This document shows positions 213 through 63,452 of a DNA stretch of 64,000 bases, one piece after another. Below the pieces are notes generated by a model, which saw only the letters and a program-made list of their open reading frames with translations, made no database searches and was not told the DNA's origin. Where the stretch lies: the sequence record MH791409.1, one strand, 5' to 3'. The position numbers and the translations under genes were made by a program. The DNA comes from Escherichia phage EcWhh-1. Positions within the stretch are counted from its first letter, which is position 1; each line of letters begins with the position of its first letter.

Positions 213-2033
213 TTATGACATCCAAGCCTTACGCAGCTGTGGGTCGTTTCCAAGGAGCATTTCGAACTGGTCTTTCCAATCTTCAGGTAATTGAACTACA
301 TCGAATTTAGGGTCTTGAATCATTCGACGGTATTCAGCCTTCTCAAGAGAACCGAGTCCTTTAATATAACGAATAGAATGCTTAGGTAGAGAGTCCTTAG
401 CTTTGGTATAACTAGGTACATCATAGAACCATTCCTGTTCTTTACCAACCTGAGCAATGATTACAGGAGTCTTACAGAAACGAATTCGTCCCTGTTCAAA
501 CAATTCCGGCCACTGACTAAAGAAAGCTAATAACGAAGGATAAATCGAACCAGTACCATCCACATCGGCGTCAGTCATGATAGCGATATTACGATAGTTG
601 GTTTTATCTGCAGGTTCACCAATAACCAGTCCAGTGATTGCACAGATATCAAACAATTCTTTGTTCTTCATGATATCGGCAGCAGTCATACCCCAGGTAT
701 TCATAACCTTTCCGCGTAACGGATAACCACCTTGGAGGTCTTTATTACGAACTTCAATGAAAGGACCCATTGCAGAATCACCTTCCGTAAGGAATAAAGT
801 CGTATCAGCATCTTTGCCATACATATTGGCTTTAATATGCTTATGGACCTTGGCTTTCAAAGCTTTCTTAGCAGCTTTTGTTTCGGCAGCCTTTTCAGCA
901 GCGAGCTTACGTGCTAATGCAGCCTCAATAATAGGCATCAACACAGCTTCATTAGCTAATATGGATTTAGCTAGTTTTTTAGAATCTAACTGAATATGCG
1001 AACGAATTTCACCATACGGCGATGTTAGACGTTCTTTAGTCTGGGAATCGAATCGCATATTTTTCATGCTTCGCACAAACATCAGCATCGTTAAACATTC
1101 TTTAATACGGGCTTTGGTTACTTCAATTTTAAACTTACGCTTAATTTGTGGGATAAGCTCGTCACAAATATCATCCATAACACATTCAACGTGGTGACCA
1201 CCGTTTTTAGTATGAATATTGTTCACGTACGTTAATTGTCGGAATCCATCAGGAGAGCGTCCTATAGATATCGAACAATTGTCCTGTTCTTGGATAATGC
1301 ACTCTTCGTCGAACTGTTTGGCGTATTTTTTAAACGACCCTTGGATTTTCTTACCATTAAATTTAAATTCAATATCAGGATAAATGACTGCTAAGGTTTG
1401 AAGTCGGTCAATGGTAATATCTTGATAAATTTTTTCAAATTGGTTCATTTCAAAGTGGCTAAAATCAGGTACAAATTCTACTTTGGTTCCATTAGTTTTA
1501 GATGGCTTTGATTTCCAAGAAACGTTTTCAGCGTTATTAGAGCAGTTAACAATAAGTTCAGATTTACCATCAGAAGTTGTGCCTGTAAACATCACAGAGA
1601 ATATATTTGTTAAACTGGAACCGACACCGTTTTGACCACCGGTAACACGTTCAGAGTCATCACCAAAGTTACCGCCTGCCTTGGTTTTTGTCCAAGCCGC
1701 GACGGGTCCTGGGATTTCTTCACCTTCAGGAGTAACCACTAGAGCTTGAGGAATACCACGGCCATTATCTTCTACAGTAACCTTATTAGAACTTAAATCA
1801 ATGCTTACTGAAATTTTGTTGGCAAACTTAAAATTAGTACGAATAGCTTCATCAACTGAGTTATCGATGATTTCATCAACTAATTTAAGAACACCCGCTA
1901 CATACCGTACTTTGGTAAACTCGCCGAAAAGAAATCGTTCATGGTCTTCAAATGATACACTTCCGATGTACATTCCAGGACGCTTAAGAACGTGTTCCTT
2001 ATCTGAAAGCATTTCAATTTTATTATCAATCAT
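213..2033 (-). CDS. 39: DNA topoisomerase II large subunit, uninterrupted gp39+gp60 type
   Basis: 606 aa. GHKL ATPase blocks (IIDNSVDEA, GQNGVGSS) and Toprim blocks (LTEGDSA, MTDADVDG). The C-terminal part, which T4 encodes as separate gp60, is in frame here. T4 synteny. Confidence 0.93.
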   Translation of the reverse strand: MIDNKIEMLSDKEHVLKRPGMYIGSVSFEDHERFLFGEFTKVRYVAGVLKLVDEIIDNSVDEAIRTNFKFANKISVSIDLSSNKVTVEDNGRGIPQALVVTPEGEEIPGPVAAWTKTKAGGNFGDDSERVTGGQNGVGSSLTNIFSVMFTGTTSDGKSELIVNCSNNAENVSWKSKPSKTNGTKVEFVPDFSHFEMNQFEKIYQDITIDRLQTLAVIYPDIEFKFNGKKIQGSFKKYAKQFDEECIIQEQDNCSISIGRSPDGFRQLTYVNNIHTKNGGHHVECVMDDICDELIPQIKRKFKIEVTKARIKECLTMLMFVRSMKNMRFDSQTKERLTSPYGEIRSHIQLDSKKLAKSILANEAVLMPIIEAALARKLAAEKAAETKAAKKALKAKVHKHIKANMYGKDADTTLFLTEGDSAMGPFIEVRNKDLQGGYPLRGKVMNTWGMTAADIMKNKELFDICAITGLVIGEPADKTNYRNIAIMTDADVDGTGSIYPSLLAFFSQWPELFEQGRIRFCKTPVIIAQVGKEQEWFYDVPSYTKAKDSLPKHSIRYIKGLGSLEKAEYRRMIQDPKFDVVQLPEDWKDQFEMLLGNDPQLRKAWMS

Positions 2034-2703
2034 TATGTTTTCTCTCGAATTGTTTTAAAATATTTTTATAGGACCCTTCAGGAAATCCACGTTTAATACT
2101 TTCTTTCATGAATTTAGCCAGTTTAGGTTTATCTAATTCTAACCATAAATCTTCTAAAGCGGATTCATATTCCCAAACAGGGCTTTTACGATTTTTAAGA
2201 CCGCATTTGATTAAGGCCTCGTCTGTATGTTTCTTACCAAAGAAAGGGTTGTTTTCTTTAGCCATTGCTTTGGAATGTTCAGGGCGTTTAATCCCATACA
2301 TAGGGTTAAGTTCACCTAATTTAAGGCCTGATTGGATTTTTATAGTTTCATGAGAATGATGTTTGTTAAAGAAAGGATTGTTTTCTTTACTAACGTCGGA
2401 GCCGAAAAATCCTTTAGGTGCTGCAGTTGCTCTATTAAAAAATAAATCAGATTTAGCCGCATTATTAAGGACTTGATACTTATACTCCGCTTTAGTAGCT
2501 TCTTCTCTTGTCTCGAATTCTTCAACTATCAAACTATCGAAAAGCTCAGGATGGGCAGCCAATTCAGACTTGTAAATCTCTTGGTACTTTTTAGATTTTA
2601 CGGAGCCGTGGTATCCGTTTAAATGTTTTTCTAGGCTAGTCGAACCTATATAAAATGGAGGTAATTTGTCTCCGGAATAAATCGTCAAGTAAACTATAAA
2701 CAT
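2026..2703 (-). CDS. GIY-YIG homing endonuclease (Seg-like, free-standing)
   Basis: 225 aa. N-terminal GIY-YIG (IVYLTIY...FYIGST). Repeated NNPFF(N/G)KKH and NPMYG NUMOD3-like repeats. Stop overlaps the gene 39 start by 8 nt. Confidence 0.8.
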   Translation of the reverse strand: MFIVYLTIYSGDKLPPFYIGSTSLEKHLNGYHGSVKSKKYQEIYKSELAAHPELFDSLIVEEFETREEATKAEYKYQVLNNAAKSDLFFNRATAAPKGFFGSDVSKENNPFFNKHHSHETIKIQSGLKLGELNPMYGIKRPEHSKAMAKENNPFFGKKHTDEALIKCGLKNRKSPVWEYESALEDLWLELDKPKLAKFMKESIKRGFPEGSYKNILKQFERKHND

Positions 2704-2726: not shown

Positions 2727-2756
2727 ATTATATCATGGCTTTATTGGAGCGTAAAC
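2727..2756 (-). promoter_or_regulatory. early-type promoter for the GIY-YIG gene
   Basis: Minus strand: GTTTAC (2756-2751), 18-nt spacer, TATAAT (2732-2727) preceded by TGa. AGGAGG SD before ATG 2703. Confidence 0.6.
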
Positions 2757-3900: not shown

Positions 3901-3930
3901 ATAGTATCACTACCCTACCGTATTGTATAC
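3901..3930 (-). promoter_or_regulatory. early-type promoter (weaker match)
   Basis: GTATAC (3930-3925), 18 nt, TACTAT (3906-3901), then the conserved ...CCCTATCAAC leader. Confidence 0.4.
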
Positions 3931-4552: not shown

Positions 4553-4581
4553 ATTATAACATGGCTCTCGATAAAGTAAAC
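4553..4581 (-). promoter_or_regulatory. early-type promoter
   Basis: GTTTAC (4581-4576), 17 nt, TATAAT (4558-4553) with an upstream TGt. Confidence 0.6.
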
Positions 4582-5665: not shown

Positions 5666-5694
5666 ATAATATCATGTCATGAGGAGAAGTAAAC
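5666..5694 (-). promoter_or_regulatory. early-type promoter
   Basis: GTTTAC (5694-5689), 17 nt, TATTAT (5671-5666), leader ...CCCTATCAAC, GAGGAG SD. Confidence 0.6.
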
Positions 5695-9035: not shown

Positions 9036-9064
9036 ATAGTATCATGTTGCTTGATAAAGTAAAC
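9036..9064 (-). promoter_or_regulatory. early-type promoter
   Basis: GTTTAC (9064-9059), 17 nt, TACTAT (9041-9036), leader AGACCTATCAAC. Confidence 0.6.
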
Positions 9065-9773: not shown

Positions 9774-9803
9774 ATAGTAACATAAGCATCCTTGCCTGTA
9801 AAC
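9774..9803 (-). promoter_or_regulatory. early-type promoter
   Basis: GTTTAC (9803-9798), 18 nt, TACTAT (9779-9774), GAGGAG SD. Confidence 0.55.
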
Positions 9804-10396: not shown

Positions 10397-10425
10397 ATTA
10401 TAACATGAAGGGAGGGGGTGTAAAC
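10397..10425 (-). promoter_or_regulatory. early-type promoter
   Basis: GTTTAC (10425-10420), 17 nt, TATAAT (10402-10397) with TGt. Confidence 0.6.
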
Positions 10426-12255: not shown

Positions 12256-12285
12256 ATCTTAACATGGCCTACTCGTAAAGTAAAC
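12256..12285 (-). promoter_or_regulatory. early-type promoter (weak -10)
   Basis: GTTTAC (12285-12280), 18 nt, TAAGAT (12261-12256). Lies directly downstream of the soc terminator. Confidence 0.4.
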
Positions 12286-12295
12286 TACTAAAACG

Positions 12296-12319
12296 AAAAA
12301 AGGAACCCGAAGGTTCCTT
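12296..12319 (-). terminator. rho-independent terminator after soc
   Basis: AAGGAACC-UUCG-GGUUCCUU followed by a U-run on the minus strand. Confidence 0.75.
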
Positions 12320-13120: not shown

Positions 13121-13161
13121 TATATTTTTCCTTATCAATTCATTTGTTAGTAAGTTAGATA

Positions 13162-15800: not shown

Positions 15801-15830
15801 ATAGTATCATTACCATAGACCATTGTAAAC
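15801..15830 (-). promoter_or_regulatory. early-type promoter
   Basis: GTTTAC (15830-15825), 18 nt, TACTAT (15806-15801). Confidence 0.55.
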
Positions 15831-16821: not shown

Positions 16822-16850
16822 ATAGTATCATGCCTATAGGAGATGTAAAC
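16822..16850 (-). promoter_or_regulatory. early-type promoter
   Basis: GTTTAC (16850-16845), 17 nt, TACTAT (16827-16822). Lies immediately downstream of the gene 41 terminator. Confidence 0.6.
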
Positions 16851-16856
16851 CCTTAA

Positions 16857-16881
16857 AACAAAAAAGGAGCCGAAGCTCCTT
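16857..16881 (-). terminator. rho-independent terminator after gene 41
   Basis: AAGGAGC-UUCG-GCUCCUU plus a U-run. The stem includes the TAA stop. Confidence 0.7.
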
Positions 16882-18310: not shown

Positions 18311-18633
18311 TTCCACCACCTCTTAGATTTAATTTTATCCAGTTCTTCTTGTATTTGCATTGTAACACATTTTTCTACATGAAGCGCTAGCTCTTCTTTT
18401 CGGTCTTCGGAAGGTGTTCCGAAATCAACCGACACTTTTCCATCTTTCTCAATAACAATATTCATCACATAAACGATGTGAGCAGTGCCATCGGGTAAAG
18501 TAAGCATAATTTCCTGCTTAACAGAACCCATTGACTTACGGATTATATCTAATGATTTCTCATAATAACGAGGGTCACTAGGACCCTCTTCGGTATCTTT
18601 AACAAAATTATCTAAATCAGATAAATCAGTCAT
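18304..18633 (-). CDS. 40: gp40-position protein (head vertex assembly chaperone slot), 109 aa
   Basis: Lies between uvsX and 41 as in T4. Overlaps both neighbours. Confidence 0.5.
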   Translation of the reverse strand: MTDLSDLDNFVKDTEEGPSDPRYYEKSLDIIRKSMGSVKQEIMLTLPDGTAHIVYVMNIVIEKDGKVSVDFGTPSEDRKEELALHVEKCVTMQIQEELDKIKSKRWWKW

Positions 18634-19807
18634 GGTCGCTCACAAAATTCATGTTTTCTAAATCGCTTTCGATGTCAGCAGCGCTTTGGGTATTTCCACC
18701 TAATTTAACAGAAACGTTCTTAGAGACACGAGAGTTAATAAGGTCGTTCACTGCATCGTCAACTTCTTTAATAGAATTAATTGCACCGAGCTTATACTTA
18801 TTCTCGATTGCTTCACGGAACGGAGCATGTTTAAACAGTGGTCCCCAGAACTCAACACAATCGGTAGCTTTAGCACGCCATGCTTTTTCTTCTTGAACCA
18901 TTTCACCTGTGGTTTCGTCAAGGAATGCACGATTATACCACCCAGCTTTAGGTTTCACGACAAAGCCGATATCAGTAGCCATTTCAAGCAATCCACTGAA
19001 TGGGTCGATACCGCCTTCAAAGTTAACGGTGATAGGGAACGTTGACTTCTCTTTAACCGTACGAGATTTCTCAGCCTTAAGTGTGAAGTCATAACCAGTG
19101 AGCTCAGTACCATCTTTAACCTGGCGTTTAGAGATAAAGAACACGGTAGAAGCAGAGTACAGAATACCAGTACCACCACCCATAATCTCTTTAGGATACA
19201 TTCCACCAATTTCCATAGCCGTGTGGTTAATTGCTACACAAGGGATATCCTTGATGGTCAGATAAGGTGTTACGATACGGAACAGAGATTTCAGTGACTT
19301 AGCACGAGTCATATCACCTACAACTTTCTCGTTCAAAGCATCTTCGGTTTCTTTCTTAGAAGCAGTGTTACCAATGGAGTCGATAAAGATAATAACCTTT
19401 TCGCCACGAGTAATTTCTTCTAACTGGTTGGTCATATCAACTTTAAGCTGTTCGACTGACTGGATTGGTGTATGAACCACACGTTCCAAATCAACACCCA
19501 TCGAACGGAAATAAGATTCTGAAGCACCGAACTCAGAGTCATAGAACAAGCAAATTGCGTCTGGATATTTCTTCATATATGCCGCAACCATAGTTAATCC
19601 AAACAACGTTTTAAAGTGTTTAGACGGTGCAGCAAAGATTGTCAAACCTGATTGTAAGCCTGCATTCAACGCACCACCCAATGCAATATTAAGCATAGGA
19701 ATACGAGTAGGAACTTCGTCACGACCATTAAACAATTTAGATTTGGTCAGGTCGGCAGTCATTTTAGAAGTAGAAGCTTTAATCAAACGGGATTTTAAAT
19801 CAGACAT
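18626..19807 (-). CDS. uvsX: UvsX RecA-like recombinase
   Basis: 393 aa. Walker A region AAPSKHFKT. T4 UvsX-like throughout. Synteny. Confidence 0.93.
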   Translation of the reverse strand: MSDLKSRLIKASTSKMTADLTKSKLFNGRDEVPTRIPMLNIALGGALNAGLQSGLTIFAAPSKHFKTLFGLTMVAAYMKKYPDAICLFYDSEFGASESYFRSMGVDLERVVHTPIQSVEQLKVDMTNQLEEITRGEKVIIFIDSIGNTASKKETEDALNEKVVGDMTRAKSLKSLFRIVTPYLTIKDIPCVAINHTAMEIGGMYPKEIMGGGTGILYSASTVFFISKRQVKDGTELTGYDFTLKAEKSRTVKEKSTFPITVNFEGGIDPFSGLLEMATDIGFVVKPKAGWYNRAFLDETTGEMVQEEKAWRAKATDCVEFWGPLFKHAPFREAIENKYKLGAINSIKEVDDAVNDLINSRVSKNVSVKLGGNTQSAADIESDLENMNFVSDHD

Positions 19808-25154: not shown

Positions 25155-25184
25155 ATACTACCACGTTCCTTGTGGTATGTAAAC
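25155..25184 (-). promoter_or_regulatory. early-type promoter
   Basis: GTTTAC (25184-25179), 18 nt, TAGTAT (25160-25155). Lies right after the gene 43 stop. Confidence 0.5.
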
Positions 25185-31542: not shown

Positions 31543-33221
31543 TCTAACACCGTGAATCGCCCAACTTTCTTCATTTGAAGATGTTGGCCATAAGCTTGTG
31601 GGTCATGGTCTCGGTGAGAGATAATGAACACGTTCGTATCCTCAAGGCTATTCAAGATGGTTGCAATGCTCTTAACGCCTTCAGAATCCGTGGCACTGTC
31701 AAATACCTCATCAAGAATCAGTGTGGATATATTAACACCTGATACCCTAGAAGCAATATCACGCCATGTAAAAAGTAGTGCGATATCAATACGTGCTTTC
31801 TCACCCTGTGAAAATGAAGCATAACTAAAGTCTTCACGTCCACGTGATTTAATCGTCTCATTGAATTCTTCGTCTAGGGTAAAGACGTAGTCCGCTTCCA
31901 TAATCTTCAAATAAGAATTAATCTGCTTATTAAAGATAGGAATGTATTTCTTAATAATGGAACCTTTAATACCTGTATCCTTCAACATTTCTGTCAGAAT
32001 TCCACGATGATATTTTTCCATTACCAAGGACGATTTGGTAGAGACGATTTTATCAAGCTCTGCTTGAAGCGCAGCAATCTCTTCGGCATTACTTACGAAC
32101 TCAGCTGCCGCTTGGTCAATTAATACCTTAACCTTTTTGGCTTTCTCTACAGCAGTAATGGCTTGCTGCTTATGAGTAGCTATCTGAGATTTAATAGCCA
32201 ACGCTTTATTGCGTTGTTCTGTTACTTGGTCTTTAATGAGCTTGAGCTCTTGGTATTGCTCATTAATCTTATCCAAAGATTTTTGAAGCTCAAAGTTTTT
32301 ATCCTTAATTTTAGTAAGGATATTACCATGCTCTTCTAACCCTTGCATACACGTAGGGCAGTGACCACCGGTTTCGTATAACTTAACCACCTTTGTAAAG
32401 GTTGCCATATCATTTTTGATTGCAAATCCTTTATTACTCAGGTCACTCATGGAATCGCTAGGGTCATCATCTACGATAACATTGAGTAATTCATCAGTCA
32501 GGGATTCTATGCTCGCCTTAGCAGTCCTGGCTTCTTTAACGAGCTCATCATACATTAATTGTAGACGGGCAGCGTTTTCGCCAGATAATTTACGTTGACG
32601 TTCTTCGTTGTCATTATAAATTTTAATTTGTTGGGTAATAGAATCTTGCTTAACGTCTATTACTTGGATTTGGCTATTAGTCTCACGAATCAAAGATTTG
32701 TTCAACTTATCCATATCCGCCAATACAGAAACCTCTAAGAGGTCTTCGACGAGTTTTCTTCTTGCAGGAGTGGATAGGCCCATAAAAGGGGTATATCCAG
32801 CTGTGCCGAGTACGACAATTTGTTTGAAGCTTGCATAGGACATTCCGATAAGCTGTTCAAATTCCGCTTGGAAGTCTTTACTGCTGGCAGATTCATCAAG
32901 ACGTTCACCGTCACAAGAGATTTCAAAAACGTTGGGTTTTTGCCCGCGTTTGATATAGTATTCTTTGCCATCATATTCCATCCACAGTTCGACCAAAAGG
33001 TCTTTCTTGTTACTTGAGTTAATCAACTGCCCTTTCTTAACATCACGAAAAGGCTTACCGAACAGAGCAAATGTTACAGCTTCAAGGAATGTTGATTTCC
33101 CTGCACCATTTTTACCAGTGACTAAGGTCTTTTGGACCTTATCAAGTTGGATTGTAATGGGCTGCTGCCCGACCGACATAATATTTTTATACGTTACTTT
33201 CTTTAACTTAAAAGTCTTCAT
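31539..33221 (-). CDS. 46: recombination endonuclease subunit (Rad50/SbcC-like)
   Basis: Start at ATG 33221 gives 560 aa, colinear with T4 gp46 (GKNGAGKST, FSQGEKARIDIALLF, LILDEVFD). Confidence 0.95.
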   Translation of the reverse strand: MKTFKLKKVTYKNIMSVGQQPITIQLDKVQKTLVTGKNGAGKSTFLEAVTFALFGKPFRDVKKGQLINSSNKKDLLVELWMEYDGKEYYIKRGQKPNVFEISCDGERLDESASSKDFQAEFEQLIGMSYASFKQIVVLGTAGYTPFMGLSTPARRKLVEDLLEVSVLADMDKLNKSLIRETNSQIQVIDVKQDSITQQIKIYNDNEERQRKLSGENAARLQLMYDELVKEARTAKASIESLTDELLNVIVDDDPSDSMSDLSNKGFAIKNDMATFTKVVKLYETGGHCPTCMQGLEEHGNILTKIKDKNFELQKSLDKINEQYQELKLIKDQVTEQRNKALAIKSQIATHKQQAITAVEKAKKVKVLIDQAAAEFVSNAEEIAALQAELDKIVSTKSSLVMEKYHRGILTEMLKDTGIKGSIIKKYIPIFNKQINSYLKIMEADYVFTLDEEFNETIKSRGREDFSYASFSQGEKARIDIALLFTWRDIASRVSGVNISTLILDEVFDSATDSEGVKSIATILNSLEDTNVFIISHRDHDPQAYGQHLQMKKVGRFTVLE

Positions 33222-34630: not shown

Positions 34631-34672
34631 ATGTTCTCCTCAGTTGGTTCATTTTATCATCCTAATATAAAG

Positions 34673-34696
34673 CAAAAAAGGAGCCTAAGCTCCTTT
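34673..34696 (-). terminator. rho-independent terminator
   Basis: AAGGAGC-UUAG-GCUCCUU plus a U6 run on the minus strand. Confidence 0.65.
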
Positions 34697-37412: not shown

Positions 37413-37442
37413 ATTATACTCTGGTCCCAAGAGTTTGTAAAC
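37413..37442 (-). promoter_or_regulatory. early-type promoter
   Basis: GTTTAC (37442-37437), 18 nt, TATAAT (37418-37413). A TATAAATT late-like box lies at 37400-37393. Confidence 0.55.
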
Positions 37443-37781: not shown

Positions 37782-38075
37782 TCAGCTGTAACGATAGCAT
37801 TCGTTTGATTTACGTTTTGCAACTCGATGAGAAGTATTGTAATCAGGTTCATCGTCGCTGTAAACATCTTTTTTCAGTTTTCTCACTTCTTTACGAAGTT
37901 GGCGGTTCATTTCATTCTTAACTTCAGAATCAACGCCGCTAAAGCGTTTCCATTTATCTGACCGGAAGATATTTTCATTCAAAGTTTCTTCCGATACGCC
38001 ATCAGGTGCTTTACGTCTAGCAATGCAATTAAAATCTCTAGATGGCAATTCTTTACGACGGATAGTTTTACCCAT
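37782..38075 (-). CDS. hypothetical basic protein, 97 aa
   Basis: Coding-strand ORF, Lys/Arg-rich. Confidence 0.5.
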   Translation of the reverse strand: MGKTIRRKELPSRDFNCIARRKAPDGVSEETLNENIFRSDKWKRFSGVDSEVKNEMNRQLRKEVRKLKKDVYSDDEPDYNTSHRVAKRKSNECYRYS

Positions 38076-38534: not shown

Positions 38535-38563
38535 ACTATAACACGTGAGGAGAGGAAGTAAAC
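38535..38563 (-). promoter_or_regulatory. early-type promoter
   Basis: GTTTAC (38563-38558), 17 nt, TATAGT (38540-38535). Confidence 0.55.
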
Positions 38564-40003: not shown

Positions 40004-40187
40004 ATTTTTCAAATGTACTATAGAACGAACGATGCAACCGTTTAAATTGACGAATCATCTTTTTGGTAGGGCGAGTATACAATCCTACACAGGTGGCCAT
40101 AAACTGGTCGGTAGGACTTCCTTTGATAAGAAGTTTCCAGACCTTACTGCCATCCAACTTTTCGGTATAGACTAATTTAGTTTTCAT
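40002..40187 (-). CDS. RPTKRQ-motif small basic protein, 61 aa
   Basis: TRPTKKMIRQFKRLHR motif. Third family member. Confidence 0.55.
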   Translation of the reverse strand: MKTKLVYTEKLDGSKVWKLLIKGSPTDQFMATCVGLYTRPTKKMIRQFKRLHRSFYSTFEK

Positions 40188-40360: not shown

Positions 40361-40523
40361 ATCCAAACTCCATATCGATTAAATCATTGTTTGAAGGTTC
40401 ATTATACTCTATTTCGGAATCGTTGTAAACCGGTTCCTCTGGCTCGGTAGTTTCCCACCGAGCGACATACCATGGCTTAACGGTCACACCACCAACTCGA
40501 TACTTCAAAATCGGGTTCACCAT
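40344..40523 (-). CDS. hypothetical acidic protein, start uncertain
   Basis: Only the C-terminal part (VKPWYVARWETTEPEEPVYNDSEIEYNEP...) is free of the overlap with 40477-40785. Candidate starts are ATG 40523 or an in-frame GTG about 11 nt before the upstream stop. Confidence 0.3.
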   Translation of the reverse strand: MVNPILKYRVGGVTVKPWYVARWETTEPEEPVYNDSEIEYNEPSNNDLIDMEFGYEYQN

Positions 40524-42963: not shown

Positions 42964-42993
42964 ATTATACTCCATCCATCCTTGGATGTAAAC
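42964..42993 (-). promoter_or_regulatory. early-type promoter
   Basis: GTTTAC (42993-42988), 18 nt, TATAAT (42969-42964). Confidence 0.55.
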
Positions 42994-45552: not shown

Positions 45553-45581
45553 ATAGTATCATTTCTACTGGAGATGTAAAC
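45553..45581 (-). promoter_or_regulatory. early-type promoter
   Basis: GTTTAC (45581-45576), 17 nt, TACTAT (45558-45553), leader AGACCTATCAAC. Confidence 0.6.
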
Positions 45582-45935: not shown

Positions 45936-46916
45936 TTATTTCAGAAGTGTAACTTCAGCGATTTCGTTCCAGTCATTTTTATCAGTGGCAATGAAGTCCG
46001 CCAGATAAAGAGCTGTACGTAATGATACGTTACGAAGACGAGATACATTAGCCTTCATCCATGCTAAAGCTTGATAAGTCTCAGCATCAGTCAGACCTCG
46101 ATTTTGCATCATATCAGTGGACAGGATAACGTCTTCAACACGAACCATAATCTCTTCGTTCGAGTGAACTCCGAGGTCTAAGTAAACTGAACGAGATACT
46201 AAAGCCTGGAGGTGTGGAGCAAGTTTAGTTCCACGCTCTAATTCACGGTCAATATCAACGTTGGTGATGAACACGATGGTGCCTTCGTATTCGAATTCTT
46301 TATCGATATTTTTATCATCGAGGTAAGAACTTGAAGTGCTCCAGCACACTTTACGTTTTTCACCAGTATCCAATGCTGCTTTTAACAGGTTCAGGATATC
46401 CATATCAGAGAATACATCAACATCATCGATAAGAAGAACACTATTAGGGCCGCGGTTATTCCAAAGCTGCTCGTAAAGACCGATTCCACTAATCTTTCCG
46501 TTGATTGATTTATATTCGATAGTTTCATTTTCGTGGGCATTTTGTAATGCTTTATCCAAAGAATACGTTTTACCAATACCTGCGGCACCAGAGATGATAA
46601 GGGAACGAATTTTACCATCGATGATTCCGTTGGTCATCATGTTCATTACTTTAAAACGTTTGTTGATGCGATGTTTCATTTCTTCAGCGGATTCAGTAAT
46701 CACTACAGGAGCTTCAGTACCTTCCATTTCAACGTCACATTTGAACACCCATACACCACGTTCAACACCATCAATCTGTACGAATACCTTGCCATCACCG
46801 AGGTGAGCTTCGGATTCATGAATTTTATTTGGGAACCAGGTTTTACCTGAACTCATGAACGTACCAGAGATTTCATTACCGCGATAGATACCTTTGTTGA
46901 TTTTGATAGTTAACAT
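45936..46916 (-). CDS. AAA+ ATPase
   Basis: Start at ATG 46916 (AAGGAG SD). Walker A IISGAAGIGKTYS, Walker B VLLIDDVD. Confidence 0.7.
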   Translation of the reverse strand: MLTIKINKGIYRGNEISGTFMSSGKTWFPNKIHESEAHLGDGKVFVQIDGVERGVWVFKCDVEMEGTEAPVVITESAEEMKHRINKRFKVMNMMTNGIIDGKIRSLIISGAAGIGKTYSLDKALQNAHENETIEYKSINGKISGIGLYEQLWNNRGPNSVLLIDDVDVFSDMDILNLLKAALDTGEKRKVCWSTSSSYLDDKNIDKEFEYEGTIVFITNVDIDRELERGTKLAPHLQALVSRSVYLDLGVHSNEEIMVRVEDVILSTDMMQNRGLTDAETYQALAWMKANVSRLRNVSLRTALYLADFIATDKNDWNEIAEVTLLK

Positions 46917-46951
46917 TTTATTCTCCTTCACTCAGTAGATTTGATAGGTCT

Positions 46952-46980
46952 ATAATAACATGTTTGAAATGGATGTACAC
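46952..46980 (-). promoter_or_regulatory. early-type promoter (GTGTAC variant)
   Basis: GTGTAC (46980-46975), 17 nt, TATTAT (46957-46952). About 40 nt are near-identical to the copy at 47264-47292. Confidence 0.5.
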
Positions 46981-46982
46981 AC

Positions 46983-47213
46983 TTATTTTGCAATAATTTC
47001 ACAGAAGCCATCTTTATAGCGGGCCCATGTTTCACCATTTACTGTATAAAGAGCAGCTTTACGACCATTAGGCATAACAACTTGTTTACCTTTGTTTTTA
47101 GTTACAGCTTCAATAATTTCGTATTCTTCGGCACGATCAGCTTTAAATGTATCTTCCAGAGCGATCAAGTTAGTAGTGTAAGAACCGTATTTGTAATTTT
47201 TGATAGCGTACAT
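46983..47213 (-). CDS. hypothetical protein, 76 aa
   Basis: Flanked by the two near-identical promoter copies. Confidence 0.55.
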   Translation of the reverse strand: MYAIKNYKYGSYTTNLIALEDTFKADRAEEYEIIEAVTKNKGKQVVMPNGRKAALYTVNGETWARYKDGFCEIIAK

Positions 47214-47263
47214 TTTTATATCTCCGTTTGGTTTAAGTTTTCAGCTCTTTAGCTGATAGGTCT

Positions 47264-47292
47264 ATAATAACATGTTTAAAGCAGATGTACAC
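47264..47292 (-). promoter_or_regulatory. early-type promoter (GTGTAC variant)
   Basis: GTGTAC (47292-47287), 17 nt, TATTAT (47269-47264). Confidence 0.5.
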
Positions 47293-47312
47293 TACTTTTT
47301 TGCACTAAACCC

Positions 47313-47334
47313 AAAAAAGGCCCGAAGGCCTTTT
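47313..47334 (-). terminator. rho-independent terminator
   Basis: AAAAGGCC-UUCG-GGCCUUUU plus a U-run. Abuts the TGA at 47336-47338. Confidence 0.7.
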
Positions 47335-47335
47335 A

Positions 47336-48346
47336 TCATTTATAATACGAGTTATGGTTTTCTAGGTAAACCTGCTCAACGAACTTGTCCCAGAACTTCA
47401 TATCTACCTTATCAGGCATACCGTTCTTAGCTGCCCAGATGGCATTGGTTTCGACTTCATCAACTATAGCTTCGAGCTCAGCCTGTACATCTTTAAAAGC
47501 ATGTAGCCCCTGTTTGATTTCAAGGATAAATGGTGCTGTTCGTAAAGGATATTGAAGGTCACCGGTCATATAGATTTCCTTCAACTGATATCCAGCACGA
47601 TAAGCATGGCTCAGAGCTTTCCAGTCAATACCTTCATTAGCTTCAGCCTTACGAGCACGTTCGCCATATTCTGCATCAAGTTTATTCAGAGATTGCTTAA
47701 GCTCGACCAATGACAGAGTAGTTTGGTACTTACGTCCGAGGACAGTATAGAACGTTTGAGGACCTGTTTTCTCGTGGTTATGAAATACCCATTCACAGAA
47801 CTCGTTTTCAGGGAGCCGGTGCTTAATATCTTCTACCTTAGTACGTCGTTGCTTAGTAGAACCATCTTCTTGATAATCAACCCACTGTTCAGGAATCTGG
47901 TTAACGATAGCCAGTACACCACGCAGAGCAGCCAGACGAGAACCCTTAACACCATATTTAGAAGCTTGCTTACGAACGTACCCTAAATAGGCTTTCATGT
48001 TGGTTGTATAGAACCGAGAACGATTGTCTTGGATAAATTTCCATACATCAGGTAAATCAGATTTAACCACCAGTTCAGGTGGAGTATGAATCATGTCCAG
48101 AGCAACTGTTTCGCCATCAGCCGCTAGTTTAAAGAAATATTTCAGGCTGTAAAGCTCGTGGTCGACATCATCTTTAGTGTTTTTGGAAGCAGTGTTATTC
48201 GTGTTCAGGTTGGTATGGTTCATAGCCGTACCTAACAGAATATCACGCGGATGCGGAACAAAGATTTCTTTAAAATCGACATCAGATTCCGGAGTACTTG
48301 TTCCATAAAGGTGGCTACCGAAGTAGCCTTTCATAACTGTTCTCAT
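47336..48346 (-). CDS. predicted nucleotidyltransferase (pol-beta superfamily, RlaP-like)
   Basis: 336 aa. GSHLYGTSTPESDVDF (G-S...D-x-D) signature. ATGA overlap with the upstream gene. Confidence 0.6.
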   Translation of the reverse strand: MRTVMKGYFGSHLYGTSTPESDVDFKEIFVPHPRDILLGTAMNHTNLNTNNTASKNTKDDVDHELYSLKYFFKLAADGETVALDMIHTPPELVVKSDLPDVWKFIQDNRSRFYTTNMKAYLGYVRKQASKYGVKGSRLAALRGVLAIVNQIPEQWVDYQEDGSTKQRRTKVEDIKHRLPENEFCEWVFHNHEKTGPQTFYTVLGRKYQTTLSLVELKQSLNKLDAEYGERARKAEANEGIDWKALSHAYRAGYQLKEIYMTGDLQYPLRTAPFILEIKQGLHAFKDVQAELEAIVDEVETNAIWAAKNGMPDKVDMKFWDKFVEQVYLENHNSYYK

Positions 48347-49854: not shown

Positions 49855-49878
49855 CTCATGCTCCTGTGCCATCAGCCA

Positions 49879-50315: not shown

Positions 50316-50546
50316 TTAAATTTTTTCGAATAATGCTAAAGCTTTTTCGATAGCTACAGATTTAGTACCAATAACCATTTTAGGCTGGTATTGGAACTTA
50401 GTAGCTTCGTAAACTTCTAAACCGGTTACTTTACCATTTTGTTCGATAATAGCAAAGGTGGCGTTTTCAAAATCTTCAGCTTTAACTTTAAGTGCTTTAG
50501 AAGCTTTAGCGATATCGATAACTTTCAGGTTGGTGATGGTTTTCAT
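50316..50546 (-). CDS. hypothetical protein, 76 aa
   Basis: GAGGAG SD. First gene after an early promoter. Confidence 0.55.
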   Translation of the reverse strand: MKTITNLKVIDIAKASKALKVKAEDFENATFAIIEQNGKVTGLEVYEATKFQYQPKMVIGTKSVAIEKALALFEKI

Positions 50547-50574: not shown

Positions 50575-50603
50575 ATAGTATCATGTTCCTAGAGGATGTA
50601 AAC
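50575..50603 (-). promoter_or_regulatory. early-type promoter
   Basis: GTTTAC (50603-50598), 17 nt, TACTAT (50580-50575). Confidence 0.6.
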
Positions 50604-50612
50604 ACCTAAACG

Positions 50613-50640
50613 AAAAAAGGTCCCACCGAAGTGAGACCTT
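50613..50640 (-). terminator. rho-independent terminator
   Basis: AAGGUCUCAC-UUCG-GUGGGACCUU (one mismatch) plus a U6 run. Confidence 0.65.
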
Positions 50641-50643
50641 TGA

Positions 50644-52267: not shown

Positions 52268-52453
52268 TTAAAGACTATTTACATAAGCTATTAATTCATT
52301 TTCTTTCTCATCAAATCGATTGGCAAATTCTTCCTGGTGTTCGGCATCTATAGGGCCATATTCATCATAAAAAGAATTTGCTTCTGCATGCTCATCCAAA
52401 AGCTCATGGATAAGCTCAAATAATTTATCTTTCTGTTCTTTACTCAGACTCAT
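52268..52453 (-). CDS. hypothetical acidic protein, 61 aa
   Basis: Start moved to ATG 52453 (AAAGGTG SD, ATGA coupling). Confidence 0.5.
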   Translation of the reverse strand: MSLSKEQKDKLFELIHELLDEHAEANSFYDEYGPIDAEHQEEFANRFDEKENELIAYVNSL

Positions 52454-54006: not shown

Positions 54007-54465
54007 TTAAAGATAGATTACTTTCGTGCTGGTTTTACCTTCTAAACGTTTAGAGTTAACAAATGCCATACGACATTTTAATGAATATCCTTTATCAGGA
54101 TGTTTACGATCTACGGTCATACCCAACCATAAGGTTTTATCGGTAATCTCGAGACGCAGCGGACGATACACCTTACCTGGGACAATTTCGGATTCTACAT
54201 CAGGCAGAGGTTCCTGGATTAAGAATTCATGGATTTCTTTAACATGGTTATGGAGTTGCTTGAATAAAGCAAAAACGTATTTTTCGTCGATTTCACGTTG
54301 GATAGCACGGTCCAACAAATGATTGGAGTACTTAATAAAGAAGGCTGGGACTCCGCTCTTAATGGCGGCTTTTTTGATGGACGCATTCAGTTCACGGAAT
54401 TCGGTTTCAAACTGACGACGTAATTTGTTGCGGCGGATGAATACTTCTGAATTAATTTCTGACAT
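54007..54465 (-). CDS. regB: RegB endoribonuclease
   Basis: 152 aa. EVFIRRNKLRRQFE...HLLDRAIQREIDEKYVF matches T4 RegB. Confidence 0.93.
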   Translation of the reverse strand: MSEINSEVFIRRNKLRRQFETEFRELNASIKKAAIKSGVPAFFIKYSNHLLDRAIQREIDEKYVFALFKQLHNHVKEIHEFLIQEPLPDVESEIVPGKVYRPLRLEITDKTLWLGMTVDRKHPDKGYSLKCRMAFVNSKRLEGKTSTKVIYL

Positions 54466-54493
54466 TTTGTAATCTCCTGTAGTTGATAGGTTT

Positions 54494-54522
54494 ATAGTAT
54501 CATGTCTACAGGAGATGTAAAC
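54494..54522 (-). promoter_or_regulatory. early-type promoter
   Basis: GTTTAC (54522-54517), 17 nt, TACTAT (54499-54494). Confidence 0.6.
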
Positions 54523-54526
54523 TGCT

Positions 54527-54736
54527 TTATTCTTGGAATGGGGTAAGTTTTCCAGCAGCTGAACAAATTTCTACCAGTACAGGGTAAAACTCTTTCACTT
54601 GTTCAAGGCGTTGGGCTGCATACTGTACTTCGCCTTCTTCGAGACAAGCCATTTGGTCGTCAAGCAAGTATTTGTGGTAACCAGTACAGGCTTCACCGAT
54701 GATACGTTGGAAATCTTGCAAACTTTCAATTTTCAT
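54527..54736 (-). CDS. hypothetical protein, 69 aa
   Basis: Start moved to ATG 54736 (GAGGAAAAA SD, TGATG junction). Confidence 0.5.
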   Translation of the reverse strand: MKIESLQDFQRIIGEACTGYHKYLLDDQMACLEEGEVQYAAQRLEQVKEFYPVLVEICSAAGKLTPFQE

Positions 54737-56203: not shown

Positions 56204-56503
56204 TTAGAAAGAACCAGAACCTTTAATTGTGTTCTGACGACCTTTATTTTCTAATTCAGAGTGGTCGATTTCATATGCTTGTGCTACGCCAAAGGCCTTT
56301 TTAACTTTAGCTAAAGAACCTTTAGATGTAACAATATTAAAAGTATTACCTTTGGTAAAATCAACCAAATCGACTTGTACACCCTGTTTACCAAGGCTTG
56401 CTACAATAGCGTCAACATATTCTTGGTCTAAAGTGCCTTGGACTCCAATTTGAAATGCTTTAGGGGCTTTGGCTTCTGTAATAAATTCTTGATAAGTTTT
56501 CAT
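56204..56503 (-). CDS. head internal protein with capsid-targeting sequence
   Basis: 99 aa. N-terminus MKTYQEFITE|A equals the T4 IP capsid-targeting and gp21-cleavage consensus. The remainder is unlike T4 IPII/IPIII. Confidence 0.7.
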   Translation of the reverse strand: MKTYQEFITEAKAPKAFQIGVQGTLDQEYVDAIVASLGKQGVQVDLVDFTKGNTFNIVTSKGSLAKVKKAFGVAQAYEIDHSELENKGRQNTIKGSGSF

Positions 56504-56527: not shown

Positions 56528-56557
56528 ATTCTATCACGGATTTAATTAAGCGTAAAT
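56528..56557 (-). promoter_or_regulatory. early-type promoter (inside denV 3' end)
   Basis: ATTTAC (56557-56552), 18 nt, TAGAAT (56533-56528). Confidence 0.4.
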
Positions 56558-56962
56558 AGCCTTACCATAATGTTTGTACCAGGTAGGGCGCTGTGCAATT
56601 TTTTCGTCTAAACGGGCTTGTGAAATAGCGATAGAAGCTTCGTGAGGAACATAATCACCACGGAATTCCTGAGGAATATCACTAATGTCCTGGACCGTAG
56701 TATCCTTGATATTAAAACCACGTTTTAAACATTCGGCTATAAGCTCAATTTGTCGCTTACGTAAAAATTCAAGCTTATCGTAAAAGAATGTAACATGGCC
56801 TGTGCCAAGGATAAAAGTAGGACTGATTTTAAAATCACGAACACGTTTACCGTTAGCAACATGCTTACGAACTGCACCGAAAACACGTGGTAATTCACGA
56901 TATTCAGCCATTAAGTGTTGGTCAGCCAATTCAGATACTAAGGTAAGGTTGATACGAGTCAT
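56546..56962 (-). CDS. denV: endonuclease V (pyrimidine-dimer DNA glycosylase)
   Basis: 138 aa. Essentially identical in pattern to T4 DenV ([28 protein letters not shown]...). Confidence 0.97.
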
Positions 56963-56990
56963 TTTTTAATCTCCTGTAGTTGATAGGTCT

Positions 56991-57019
56991 ATAGTATCAT
57001 GCCTACAGGAGAAGTAAAC
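56991..57019 (-). promoter_or_regulatory. early-type promoter
   Basis: GTTTAC (57019-57014), 17 nt, TACTAT (56996-56991). Confidence 0.6.
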
Positions 57020-57418
57020 TTATTTGTAAGTTTTCATCCAATTCTTAAACAAAGCTGCGACGTCTTTCTCTTTAACGTTCAATTTAACGTCCAGCATTTT
57101 GCCACCAGCGGCACGTGTCTGACGAATCTTAGCCGTACCGGTTTCGCCATTCCACTCAACATAATACTGTCCGGTGTTCATAGCGATACCATCGCCATAG
57201 TCTTCGTTCTTAGAAGTAGTGAATGCTAACTTCATGGTCTTAGAGACACGGGCCTGCATGCCTGTCTGCAGAGCGTTACGAACGCGAATAACCTGAGGAG
57301 TGGCCTGGGTAAGGTTCTCATTCAGTTCTTCAGTGAACTCTTCGGATTCAAACATCGCCAAAAGTTCTTTAGATGCAGGAATTACATTCTCTGCGATAAA
57401 TTCATTATAAGTTTTCAT
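57020..57418 (-). CDS. head internal protein with capsid-targeting sequence
   Basis: 132 aa. N-terminus [10 protein letters not shown]|N. Lies just downstream of e, as ipIII does in T4. Confidence 0.7.
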
Positions 57419-59892: not shown

Positions 59893-60105
59893 TTACTTTT
59901 TGTTGAAAAAGTACATTTTACCTTTAGGGGACAAGGATACACGAAGTGCATTACCAATACCAACTGAACATTTAACCAGGTCAGCAGATTTCAATTCACC
60001 AAATGCTTGACGAAGGTCTCCATCACGAGTGTTAACCATCAGGCATTTAGCACCAGCTGCACGAACTTCGTTTAACATGTTGATTGCTTGATTAGAAAGT
60101 TTCAT
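59893..60105 (-). CDS. hypothetical protein, 70 aa
   Basis: Start moved to ATG 60105 (GGAG SD). The longer track ORF runs through its own promoter. Confidence 0.5.
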   Translation of the reverse strand: MKLSNQAINMLNEVRAAGAKCLMVNTRDGDLRQAFGELKSADLVKCSVGIGNALRVSLSPKGKMYFFNKK

Positions 60106-60142
60106 TTTATTCTCCATTTCACTCTGTTGTTTTGATAGGTCT

Positions 60143-60171
60143 ATAGTATCACACCTATAGACCTTGTAAAC
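60143..60171 (-). promoter_or_regulatory. early-type promoter
   Basis: GTTTAC (60171-60166), 17 nt, TACTAT (60148-60143). Confidence 0.6.
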
Positions 60172-61156: not shown

Positions 61157-61324
61157 TTAGTAGAGACGAGTTACTTCATATTTACCTAGTTCAGATTTTT
61201 TTGCTTCAACACGCGTGGCAGCGAGATTAGCGGCCTCTAGTGAAGAAAATTGAAGCACTTGTGAAGTATTCTGCCTTACGCCACCTTGTGGGTGAGTAAC
61301 AAAAACAATAAGAACATTATACAT
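61157..61324 (-). CDS. hypothetical small protein, 55 aa
   Basis: Below cutoff. GAGGAAAATATT-ATG leader identical to that of the next gene. MYNVLIVFVTHPQGGVRQNTSQ... Confidence 0.5.
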   Translation of the reverse strand: MYNVLIVFVTHPQGGVRQNTSQVLQFSSLEAANLAATRVEAKKSELGKYEVTRLY

Positions 61325-61345
61325 AATATTTTCCTCAGAGTAAAC

Positions 61346-62444: not shown

Positions 62445-62654
62445 TTAGCAAGACATAGAGGAGCTAAACCAGAAACCTTCACCTTCAGGAATACCGTAAT
62501 CATCACGGACCCATTCGTAATCATCATATTCCGGACTAGAAGCTGGAATATATTCTTCGCCACCAGCGTGGAAGTGCTGACCTGTTTCGTCAGCCACGGA
62601 CTGGCCTTTACGTACTAATTCACGGATTTGTTTTTCAATTTCATCAATAGTCAT
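62445..62654 (-). CDS. W-x-S-S-S-x-x-C family member 2 (69 aa)
   Basis: Ends GFWFSSSMSC*. TAAGGAAATAAA-ATG junction. Confidence 0.6.
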   Translation of the reverse strand: MTIDEIEKQIRELVRKGQSVADETGQHFHAGGEEYIPASSPEYDDYEWVRDDYGIPEGEGFWFSSSMSC

Positions 62655-62663
62655 TTTATTTCC

Positions 62664-62861
62664 TTAGCATTCGTAAGAGGAGGACACCCAGGAGCCACCT
62701 GTAATTGTAATACAGCCATTGTAAATCGTGATATGACGGTCCAGATGGTTTTCACCATCGATATAGATATCAGCTTCTTCGCGTTCTTCTTTACAAATCT
62801 GGATAACGTTTTCAATAGCTGCGGCTGCAGTACGGATTGCACAATCTAGTTCACGAGACAT
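62664..62861 (-). CDS. W-x-S-S-S-x-x-C family member 3 (65 aa)
   Basis: Ends GSWVSSSYEC*. TAAGGAATTATT-ATG junction. Confidence 0.6.
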   Translation of the reverse strand: MSRELDCAIRTAAAAIENVIQICKEEREEADIYIDGENHLDRHITIYNGCITITGGSWVSSSYEC

Positions 62862-62870
62862 AATAATTCC

Positions 62871-63152
62871 TTAACATTCAGAAGAAGAGGACACCCAACC
62901 ACCATTTTCTAGGCTGGTAGTGTAATCATGTTGGTTTACAATAGCGTACTGAGCTTCACCGTATTCTTCCCAGTGGGCAAGGTCGGCTTTCAGGGCGCCA
63001 GGAGAATAATAGTCACCGCCCATACCGCGAGCAGGGTATATATTAAAATGAGTCTCATATTTGTTAGCAATTTCCTCAGCACGTCGAATAGCTTTATGGA
63101 TATCATTTACTGCTTTGGCCAGCTCTTTATTTTTACGGTAATCATTCATCAT
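62871..63152 (-). CDS. W-x-S-S-S-x-x-C family member 4 (93 aa)
   Basis: Ends GGWVSSSSEC*. TAAGGAAACACT-ATG junction. Confidence 0.6.
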   Translation of the reverse strand: MMNDYRKNKELAKAVNDIHKAIRRAEEIANKYETHFNIYPARGMGGDYYSPGALKADLAHWEEYGEAQYAIVNQHDYTTSLENGGWVSSSSEC

Positions 63153-63161
63153 AGTGTTTCC

Positions 63162-63452
63162 TTAGCACATTGCTGAAGAGGAGACCCAAGCACCAACTGT
63201 AACGACACCATTTTCAACTTCACCGCCGTTGTTTTCAATTTCATCTTTAAACCACTGGGAGCATTCATAACCGACAGGATAATATGTACGGCCTGAACCA
63301 TAATCACCGGTGCCGAATTGGATACCATACTTATCGGCAATAGCTTCGCATTCATGTTCGATGGCATCTACTTTATTCAGAAGAGCATAGATAGCCTTTT
63401 CTGCAGATTTCTCGTCATTGTGTTCTGGGATTTCAATTTCAATTTTATTCAT
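63162..63452 (-). CDS. W-x-S-S-S-x-x-C family member 5 (96 aa)
   Basis: Ends GAWVSSSAMC*. ATGA overlap with the upstream membrane-protein gene. Confidence 0.6.
   Translation of the reverse strand: MNKIEIEIPEHNDEKSAEKAIYALLNKVDAIEHECEAIADKYGIQFGTGDYGSGRTYYPVGYECSQWFKDEIENNGGEVENGVVTVGAWVSSSAMC

Follow-up and report, generated by a model that had tools for sequence, protein, structure and literature searches.

Putative early-promoter cassettes flank a variable ORFan slot in the early region of Escherichia phage EcWhh-1

The DNA analysed here, referred to as the window, comprises 64,000 nucleotides (nt) of Escherichia phage EcWhh-1 (record MH791409.1). This study deals with a small slot between the homologues of nrdC.11 and nrdC.10, in which two copies of a putative early-promoter cassette, P1 and P2, flank an open reading frame (ORF) of 76 amino acids (aa), named ORF76 in the following. 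Judged by its sequence, the window belongs to a T4-type coliphage of the genus Dhakavirus (Tevenvirinae) similar to JS98 and represents its early-gene arm. At 45-49 kb the identities to UP19, JS10 and JS98 amount to about 95-96%, and over the whole window colinear blastn chains were obtained with JS98 (about 94.5% mean identity) as well as with IME08, Ec2-ASingh, Esco_phi_B-01 and CLBP2. The annotation of JS98 and IME08 places the genes from rIIA.1 and 39 to dda, modA/B, 41, uvsX, 43, 45, 46, 47, 55, nrdC.x, tk, regB, denV and e in the window. Essentially all of its early genes are encoded on the minus strand, and the features described below lie on that strand unless stated otherwise.

The slot begins behind the nrdC.11 homologue (47336..48346), which encodes a nucleotidyltransferase of the RlaP family. 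Just after its stop codon a predicted intrinsic terminator is found at 47315..47334, composed of AAAAGGCC, a UUCG loop and GGCCUUUU followed by UU, from which the linker GGGTTTAGTGCAAAAAAGTA runs to the -35 box of P1. P1, the predicted early promoter of ORF76 (47264..47292), consists of the -35 box GTGTAC (47292-47287), a spacer of 17 nt ending in TGt, and the -10 box TATTAT (47269-47264), which is directly followed by the conserved core AGACCTATCA at 47263-47254, so that the whole element reads GTGTAC-N17-TATTAT-AGACCTATCAG. After a leader follows ORF76 (46983..47213), and only 2 nt past its TAA stop codon begins P2 (46952..46980), the predicted early promoter of nrdC.10, with the -35 box GTGTAC at 46980-46975, again a spacer of 17 nt, and the -10 box TATTAT at 46957-46952 (GTGTAC-N17-TATTAT-AGACCTATCAA). 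A second leader leads into the nrdC.10 homologue (45936..46916), which would be transcribed from P2 and shows weak matches to P-loop NTPases, all of them below the curated cut-offs of Pfam.

Both promoters are parts of a 55-nt direct repeat, whose upstream copy spans 47254..47308 and whose downstream copy spans 46942..46996. A free diagonal repeat search gave 46 of 55 identical nt with a period of 312 nt, and over a 57-nt promoter frame the focal pair reaches 46 of 57 identities, and it thereby shares first place among the 78 cassette pairs (median 33.5). The likeness extends beyond the functional consensus, as it includes the spacer, the unusual -35 box GTGTAC and the TATTAT box. The original prediction had described two near-identical copies bracketing an ORF of 76 aa; the arrangement was found as described, while the wording overstates the identity. 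The cassettes in front of regB and denV are another close pair.

ORF76 itself has no match in Pfam and belongs only to PHROG families of unknown function. Its conservation is 100% among 10 Dhakavirus records; many others lack it or have something else in its place. Full-length relatives with 39-54% identity as well as shorter partial matches occur in phages of other genera, among them EcS1, PEi20, CC31 and two Serratia phages. The genomic context was inspected for EcS1 and CC31, and in both the homologues sit in the same interval between nrdC.11 and nrdC.10; therefore the slot appears to be an old variable position, and a recent arrival of ORF76 from another genomic site is not supported.

At least five architectures of the slot could be identified among the public Dhakavirus genomes of a phage collection. 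The order terminator, P1, ORF76, P2 is present in 10 records. IME08, KIT01, MX01, Bp7 and others contain the terminator and a single promoter, and in fDHCT2 and similar phages an extra ORF of 47 aa after nrdC.11 precedes the terminator and the single promoter. IME341 and E33 carry, between P1 with its terminator and P2, an ORF of 84 aa (ORF84), which was found in these two phages only. ORF76 and ORF84 were considered as diverged alleles, but no alignment between them was obtained at E<=100. In AnYang (L007 720-1478) and C6 (L008 720-1475) a plus-strand ORF of about 252 aa, annotated as 'tail needle knob', lies between the terminator and the single promoter. The alignments of IME08 and Esco_phi_B-01 with the window are interrupted at 46996|47254, and on the side of the relative their ends overlap by 54 nt, which is the repeat; these two phages therefore have one promoter and no ORF76. 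Phages of the IME08 type thus miss exactly one repeat unit together with ORF76, and the downstream repeat copy of the window contains the junction of this deletion.

The promoters of the slot were compared after anchoring on the -10 box. Two types of -35 box and spacer could be distinguished, alpha with GTTTAC aacctcgtagagcatg and beta with GTGTAC at.tgctttaaac.tgt, and three types of leader, which are those of nrdC.10, ORF76 and ORF84. In IME341, P1 combines alpha with the ORF84 leader and P2 combines beta with the nrdC.10 leader, and the single promoter of IME08 is made up of alpha and the nrdC.10 leader. From this mosaic it follows that a single reciprocal exchange inside the -10/+1 core would separate the states of IME341 and IME08. 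Both focal copies are of the beta type in the window as well as in JS98, and in JS98 the spacers of P1 and P2 are identical, which requires an exchange point upstream of the -35 box and/or gene conversion between the copies. As read from these comparisons, the exchange points at the slot lie inside the promoter, and the crossovers would be placed either in the -10/+1 core or farther upstream, in the A-rich sequence that precedes the -35 box. A promoter with a beta-like spacer (acctcctttaaacatga) and a leader (cagtgtgaaggaga) that resembles the nrdC.10 leader was also seen at positions 68560-68760 of JS98 (L003 ~18560-18760), beyond the window; this distant promoter may be related to the focal ones.

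P1 and P2 belong to a larger family. A generic sigma-70 scan of 44-52 kb was too unspecific to define it (29 sites compared to 21.9 +/- 4.7 in shuffled sequences), and a lineage-specific pattern was used in its place. The pattern GTTTAC-N17/18-TANNAT has 21 strict matches in the window, all 21 on the minus strand, compared to 0.66 +/- 0.76 in shuffles, and the core AGACCTATCA with at most one mismatch has 14 matches, again all on the minus strand (3.9 expected). An objective rule, which combines a -35 box with at most one mismatch, a spacer of 17 or 18 nt, a -10 box, either TGn or a perfect -35 box, a Shine-Dalgarno sequence (SD), ATG and an ORF of 30 codons or more, recovers 24 sites on the minus and none on the plus strand. 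The recurrence on the minus strand, put at about 24 copies by the original prediction, is thereby borne out, and all 16 positions named there as examples coincide with the low-coordinate end of the -10 hexamer of a recovered site.

The curated set comprises 22 cassettes. Their consensus is an A-rich upstream region, GTTTAC, a spacer ending in CATG(a/t), TA(C/T)(T/A)AT, the core AGACCTATCAAC, and GGAG followed by an A-rich tract and ATG. TGn is present in 20 of the 22 cassettes, the 20 nt upstream have an AT content of 73% (61% in the window), and all 22 end with GGAG, GAGG or AGGA and ATG. All components of the T4 early promoters, which were described as very strong 'uber' promoters composed of UP, -35, TGn and -10 elements (Hinton 2010, PMC2988021), are thus found in the family. 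The strict matches likewise agree with the consensus TTTACW-N17-TAYWAT given for the promoter-early stem-loop elements (PeSLs) of T-even phages (PMC4122927), from which P1 and P2, with TATTAT and a spacing of 17, differ by one mismatch in GTGTAC. The regB gene of T4 has a typical early promoter (PMC3014915), and in the T4-species phage RB55 promoters homologous to the regB and denV cassettes are found at the same places. By sequence, then, the recurring unit is a family of strong early promoters of the JS98-like phage, with activity and timing presumed to be as in T4, and the cassettes are first of all the early promoters of this phage.

A search against Rfam revealed no family at threshold anywhere in the window. 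Four strict GTTTAC-N18-TANNAT matches on the minus strand lie inside ORFs (47342-47371, 37836-37865, 40401-40430 and 61316-61345) and were excluded from the cassette count; they could be chance matches, relics or internal promoters. The first of these overlaps the final codons of nrdC.11, shortly ahead of the terminator.

UUCG-loop terminators are found 7-26 nt upstream of a -35 box at five places, ~2757-2775, 12296-12317, 16851-16879, 47315-47334 and 50616-50641. Their stems and T-runs resemble canonical intrinsic terminators, and the five terminator-promoter composites have a common linker. Apart from P1, the promoters concerned are the cassette 2727..2756, with the terminator directly upstream, the cassette of mrh.2 (12256..12285; terminator 16 nt upstream), the cassette of the ORF preceding dmd (16822..16850; terminator 16866-16879 plus T-run, 15 nt upstream), and the cassette 50575..50603, which would drive a variable ORF of 76 aa at 50316..50546. 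All five terminators named by the original prediction exist, but the association was called frequent there and holds for only 5 of the 22 cassettes. The cassette 2727..2756 would drive a 225-aa Seg-like homing endonuclease with GIY-YIG and NUMOD3 domains (ORF 2026..2703), whose gene lies between 39.1 and 39, forms with its own UUCG terminator and cassette a unit at 2026-2775, and is absent from all five Dhakavirus relatives compared. A sixth terminator at 34680-34693 has a UUAG loop and is followed not by an early promoter but by a MotA box (TGCTTTA, 34674-34668) and TAAAAT (34656-34651); this composite of terminator and middle promoter (34651-34693) is like the 'PmSL' of phage nt-1 and adjoins a replacement breakpoint at 34490|34648-34671.

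About half of the cassettes possess a spacer that can base-pair with the sequence downstream, which predicts a stem-loop enclosing the -10 box. Two classes could be distinguished. In class A the spacer sequence TCTCCnnnnn pairs with nnnnnGGAGA, which is the SD, and an inner TGATA/TATCA stem surrounds the -10 box; the folds have energies of -18 to -22 kcal/mol and z scores of -3.5 to -6.1. To this class belong the cassettes of motB.2 (5666..5694, TCTCCTCATG/CATGAGGAGA), 55.6 (38535..38563, -10 box TATAGT, a hairpin of about 12 bp including the SD), nrdC.8 (45553..45581, TCTCCAGTAG/CTACTGGAGG), regB (54494..54522, TCTCCTGTAG/CTACAGGAGA) and denV (56991..57019), the hairpin of the latter being the same as in the regB cassette and in the denV promoter of T4. 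These five also show the geometry of hairpins that sequester a ribosome-binding site, which was found neither in class B nor in the focal pair. Weaker class A hairpins are present at 50603, 16850, 2756 and in the modB cassette (10397..10425).

In class B the partner of the spacer is formed by the bases just downstream of the -10 box and, where included, by the 3' part of the box itself. Members are the cassettes of the small ORF 59893..60117 (60143..60171, AGGTCTATAG/CTATAGACCT), of sp (spackle; 15801..15830, with G.U pairs), of motB (4553..4581, 9 bp, GAGAGCCAT/ATGGCTCTC), of cef (3901..3930, -35 box GTATAC, pairing just downstream of the -10 box) and of 55.2 (37413..37442). The remaining cassettes are those upstream of srd (9036..9064), with a weak hairpin, of modA (9774..9803), of imm (25155..25184), of nrdC.4 (42964..42993) and of a variable internal-protein-like ORF (56528..56557, -35 box ATTTAC).

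Eleven promoter-embedded stems reach -11.9 kcal/mol or stronger, with z scores of -3.3 to -6.1 for individual folds. The complementarity is specific to each copy: spacers pair with their own downstream partner at a mean of -11.2 kcal/mol compared to -7.7 +/- 0.6 for permuted partners, and none of 20000 permutations reached the observed value (p<5e-5). The same pairing is found in JS98, IME08 and CLBP2 (z of -7 to -8) and, weaker, in the Gaprivervirus TH22. When the arms were aligned by anchoring only on the -35 box and GGAG, changes on both sides were seen in 4 of 10 stem pairs, with a covariation score of 0.218 compared to 0.113 +/- 0.028 in shuffled alignments (0 of 500 as high) and to 0.08 or less in slid registers. 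All mismatched positions within the stems read G.U on the sense strand, with 8 cells from 3 independent loci, and none reads A.C. A strong stem and an upstream terminator do not occur together: such a stem is found in none of the 5 cassettes with a terminator and in 11 of the 17 without one (p=0.035).

The stems can also be followed into the T4 species. In RB55 (L020 ~62762, ~65357) the denV promoter has the same stem and the same core, with 97% identity over 34 nt, and the regB promoter has another stem, TTCCTCTTGACTG/CAGTTAAGAGGAGA, which still joins spacer and SD. The ipII and ipIII promoters of RB55 have stems of 8-14 bp around the -10 box. A role of the embedded stems as intrinsic terminators is unlikely, as an A-rich and not a U-rich sequence follows and a U-tract is lacking. 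Because the predicted start, about 7 nt after the -10 box, falls inside the loop, the stem would form only in read-through RNA. As a possible reading, which is on balance rather doubtful, we propose that many early promoters of the JS98 group and of T4 are enclosed by a stem-loop, with the spacer as its 5' arm and the leader as its 3' arm, the latter taking in, for about one case in three, the GGAG that serves as SD and RegB site. For each early gene, only RNA made from its own promoter might in this way be translated and be cut by RegB, the stem standing in for a terminator as insulator. Early-promoter-embedded stems that cover the SD are absent from two T4 reviews (PMC3014915, PMC2988021), older primary literature being outside that check.

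Taken as a whole, the cassettes are probably best explained as a family of early promoters with two forms of insulation, between whose members recombination took place at the focal slot. By analogy with T4, host sigma-70 RNA polymerase would fire the cassettes immediately after infection, with the core AGACCTATCAAC spanning the presumed transcription start. The SD, GGAG with its A-rich tract, is the kind of site that the RegB nuclease would cut, shutting off the early mRNAs; in T4 the target of RegB is a single-stranded GGA followed by an A-rich stretch of 11 nt (PMC1702504), and among the early mRNAs whose SD the enzyme cuts is that of regB itself (PMC1702504, PMC3014915). Insulation would come in a first form from the UUCG-loop terminator upstream (5 cassettes) and in a second from the stem within the promoter, whose 5' arm is the spacer between -35 and -10 and whose 3' arm is the discriminator or the leader, in class A the SD. 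Both would protect the units from read-through, and the class A stems may in addition mask the SD/RegB site. P1 would rely on the terminator upstream of it, and P2 has nothing of that kind. Finally, the 40-66 nt common to cassettes may let the efficient homologous recombination of the phage cross over between them, and a crossover of P1 with P2, or of a donor promoter with the resident one, could have produced the observed states of the slot.

The main competitor is the view that the cassettes are only conserved strong promoters, their likeness reflecting functional constraint, and that indels occur at any tolerated gene boundary and stop at promoter edges where the promoter must be kept. All indels and replacements of 40 bp or more that separate the window from the Dhakavirus relatives JS98, IME08, Ec2-ASingh, Esco_phi_B-01 and CLBP2 were extracted, which amounts to 41 unique events. 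Edges were found at 9 of 21 cassette junctions and at 37 of 117 other gene junctions (Fisher p=0.22), a comparison of low power, in which events were merged by coordinate and gene calls were heuristic, with reliable stops and some unreliable starts. For junctions with a spacer of at least 30 nt the numbers are 9 of 21 and 9 of 27. Counts of cassettes and edges per 4-kb bin are uncorrelated (Spearman -0.03). Nearly all edges lie at gene junctions, with or without a cassette, and only 5 are intragenic. A long flanking repeat was found in 1 of 17 window-only segments, the focal one alone; the other indels show at most microhomology at SD-ATG, or none. Homology of 11-22 nt at SD-ATG or stop/start codons flanks three segments (taatgaggagaacaaaATGaaa at 50297/50541, tgaggaaaatattATG at 61141/61322 and taaATGa.taa at 36798/37039), one window-only segment is flanked by homologous N-terminal coding sequence, and the remaining ones by none.

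These numbers are in favour of the promoter-only view and do not support the cassettes as a general predictor of indels, and further observations narrow the proposed explanation. No significant stem-loop is found in P1 or P2 (z of -0.8 and 0.06). P1 has the upstream terminator, and P2, with neither terminator nor significant fold, is a 'half' element. The single promoter of the IME08 type has the alpha spacer, unlike either copy of the window, and therefore the architecture of the window is not the direct parent of that deletion and more than one event, or gene conversion, has to be assumed. The class B stems exclude the SD, and the stem-loops may thus not all have one function. Within the genus the orthologous cassettes (JS98, IME08, Ec2-ASingh, Esco_phi_B-01, CLBP2) are too invariant for independent covariation and the alignments with TH22 are poor; paralogue permutation and the anchored arm alignment took the place of such an analysis. 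Promoter activity, start sites and timing in EcWhh-1 are carried over from T4. For the most part, the genes behind the cassettes are conserved early genes of the T4 type (motB, modA, modB, srd, imm, sp, regB, denV) and not variable ORFans, which does not support the original prediction that the roughly 24 copies bracket accessory genes. Its likening of the unit to PeSLs holds for the elements, which match the T-even consensus, and for the focal slot with its junction inside the repeat, but its expectation that cassette positions would map to breakpoints is not borne out for the class.

Some edges do fall precisely at the 5' border of a promoter, at 57019/57020 (exactly the 5' end of the denV -35 box), 54528 (6 nt upstream of the regB -35 box), 15840 (a replacement breakpoint 10 nt upstream of the sp -35 box) and 2752, and a further indel edge, 56546, lies in the spacer of the cassette 56528..56557. 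A selection filter explains the edges at promoter borders as well as a recombination mechanism does, and the first three are as it would give. Such a filter does not fit the focal junction, which lies within the common 54-55 nt and not at an edge, nor the likeness of the focal copies in spacer, GTGTAC and TATTAT beyond what function asks for. The view of the cassettes as promoters only is also at odds with the ORFan of IME341, which is unrelated to ORF76 and held between the same flanks, and with the homogenised P1 and P2 of JS98.

A second pair of cassettes argues against it, too. The regB and denV cassettes (54463-54528 and 56960-57025) are 91% identical over 66 nt, hairpin arms included, while spacer and stem of T4 regB differ, which indicates ectopic exchange. 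As the regB stem of RB55 differs and its denV stem matches, a conversion of the regB cassette by the denV cassette in the JS98 lineage is suggested. We consider it possible, but on balance rather doubtful, that the cassettes are promoters and nothing more. A role of the cassettes as recombination homology is not supported as a class property; the natural variants demonstrate it, as far as sequences can, at one slot, and the identity of the regB and denV cassettes suggests it for a second place.

Other variable places of the window were noted in the course of this comparison. Two ORFs at 56204-56503 and 57020-57418, one starting with MKTYQEFITE, have N-termini that resemble the leader of the T-even internal head proteins (IPs) and are present, absent or replaced among the relatives. 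A segment of 180 bp (62451-62630) has paralogous N-terminal coding sequence at its borders and is not present in Esco_phi_B-01 and TH22. Whole small genes of relatives (46.1, orf77, orf102 and others) are missing from the window at 33217-33221, 40183-40187, 52449-52453 and 49869-49875, and these junctions are precise at overlapping stop and start codons, with an overlap of 5-7 nt and no cassette. A 47-nt repeat family, separate from the cassettes, occupies the junctions of three consecutive small ORFs (62644-62690, 62851-62897, 63142-63188).

The inverted repeats around the -10 box could instead act as DNA, be it as a cruciform that endonuclease VII cuts or as an operator bound by a dimeric regulator. 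Perfect palindromes centred just upstream of the -10 box are indeed formed by class B arms, for example AGGTCTATAG/CTATAGACCT, and the phage encodes endonuclease VII (gene 49). We nevertheless regard this as improbable, as the arm sequences vary between cassettes with pairing kept, which argues against one protein operator, as the pattern of G.U without A.C mismatches is that of sense RNA, and as the mutual exclusion of strong stems and terminators fits a role on read-through RNA.

Least probable of all, and in our view very unlikely, is a movement of the variable ORFs by a dedicated mobile element, a homing endonuclease or a site-specific recombinase that recognises the core or the stem-loop: the window-specific Seg-like insertion with its own terminator and cassette, the mobE insertion of IME08 at 13132|13187, an invariant core TAYTATAGACCTATCA that could in principle be a recognition site, and the possibility of a specific protein raised by Arbiol et al. 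(PMC2839356) are set against the lack of any endonuclease or recombinase gene adjoining the focal slot, whose flanks encode the nucleotidyltransferase and a protein with sub-threshold NTPase matches, against the tiny size of ORF76 and the IME341 ORF, neither with a nuclease domain, and against crossover points that vary by lineage (-10/+1 core or upstream of -35), as homologous exchange would give.

Homologous exchange between early promoters has a known counterpart. PeSLs recombine and form mini-circles in RB49/phi1 (PMC2839356), and further pairs were described for PST/T4 and nt-1/KVP40 (Comeau et al. 2014, PMC4122927). The cassettes of the window share with them the composite intergenic build of AT-rich region, early promoter, SD and ATG, in part of the cassettes also a stem-loop, and a promoter consensus of the T-even type; many of the stem-loops extend over the -10 box or the spacer, as they do in RB49/phi1. 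One slot has tandem copies on either side of an ORFan, which close relatives lack or have exchanged, and the crossovers, here deduced from natural variants only, would lie between -10 and SD/ATG, the region in which the mini-circle junctions of RB49/phi1 were sequenced (Arbiol et al. 2010, PMC2839356). In contrast to the published cases, Dhakavirus is another genus, JS98 being mentioned in the PeSL literature only in passing for its g43 region, and stems with G-runs and C-runs are not present in the window cassettes. Many of the window stems include the SD, an aspect that is not discussed in PMC2839356 and PMC4122927. The class-wide link of PeSLs to plasticity was not seen in the window, whose cassettes are not enriched at indel boundaries and mostly stand before conserved early genes. 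On the present comparison of sequences the PeSL-type reading holds at the focal locus, which is a T-even flavour of the PeSL concept and not a new kind of element, promoter-mediated gene shuffling having been described already.

With the early promoters of T4 the cassettes share the A-rich UP region, the GTTTAC -35 box, TGn and the -10 box as well as the location at orthologues such as regB and denV. They differ in nothing in kind, the version of the JS98 group having a strongly conserved start region AGACCTATCAAC. The shuffling of IP loci in T-even phages (Repoila et al. 1994, summarised in PMC2839356 and PMC4122927) is matched by the variable IP-like ORFs of the window, which begin with MKTY(Q/N)EFI and are bounded by the cassettes 56557 and 57019, whereas the focal slot is outside the IP loci and ORF76 lacks the IP leader.

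For e, soc, 49 and I-TevI of T4 a hairpin is known that masks the SD in read-through RNA, while a promoter inside it makes a translatable RNA (Uzan & Miller 2010, PMC3014915). The predicted class A stems resemble these, with the promoter in the 5' arm or loop and the SD covered by the 3' arm, so that read-through RNA would fold and the own transcript would not. There, however, the internal promoter is late and the logic temporal, whereas the promoters of the window are early and of the sigma-70 type, and only class A covers the SD.

In this 64-kb early region most gains and losses of ORFs took place at ordinary junctions with little or no homology, which calls for caution, the cassettes being one route and not the dominant one. 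If our proposal on the embedded stems is true, it would turn the principle known from e, soc, 49 and I-TevI, which concerns a few late promoters, into a general rule for the design of early units, and would reinterpret the 'SL' of the PeSLs; the conservation of stems through different sequences in the JS98 group and in T4 suggests a testable rule for the insulation of early units from read-through. Beyond the three published phage pairs, the focal slot offers a clean natural example of an ORFan slot with states that are bounded inside promoter repeats, and it supports the view that gene exchange in T4-type phages may use regulatory cassettes as portable homology.

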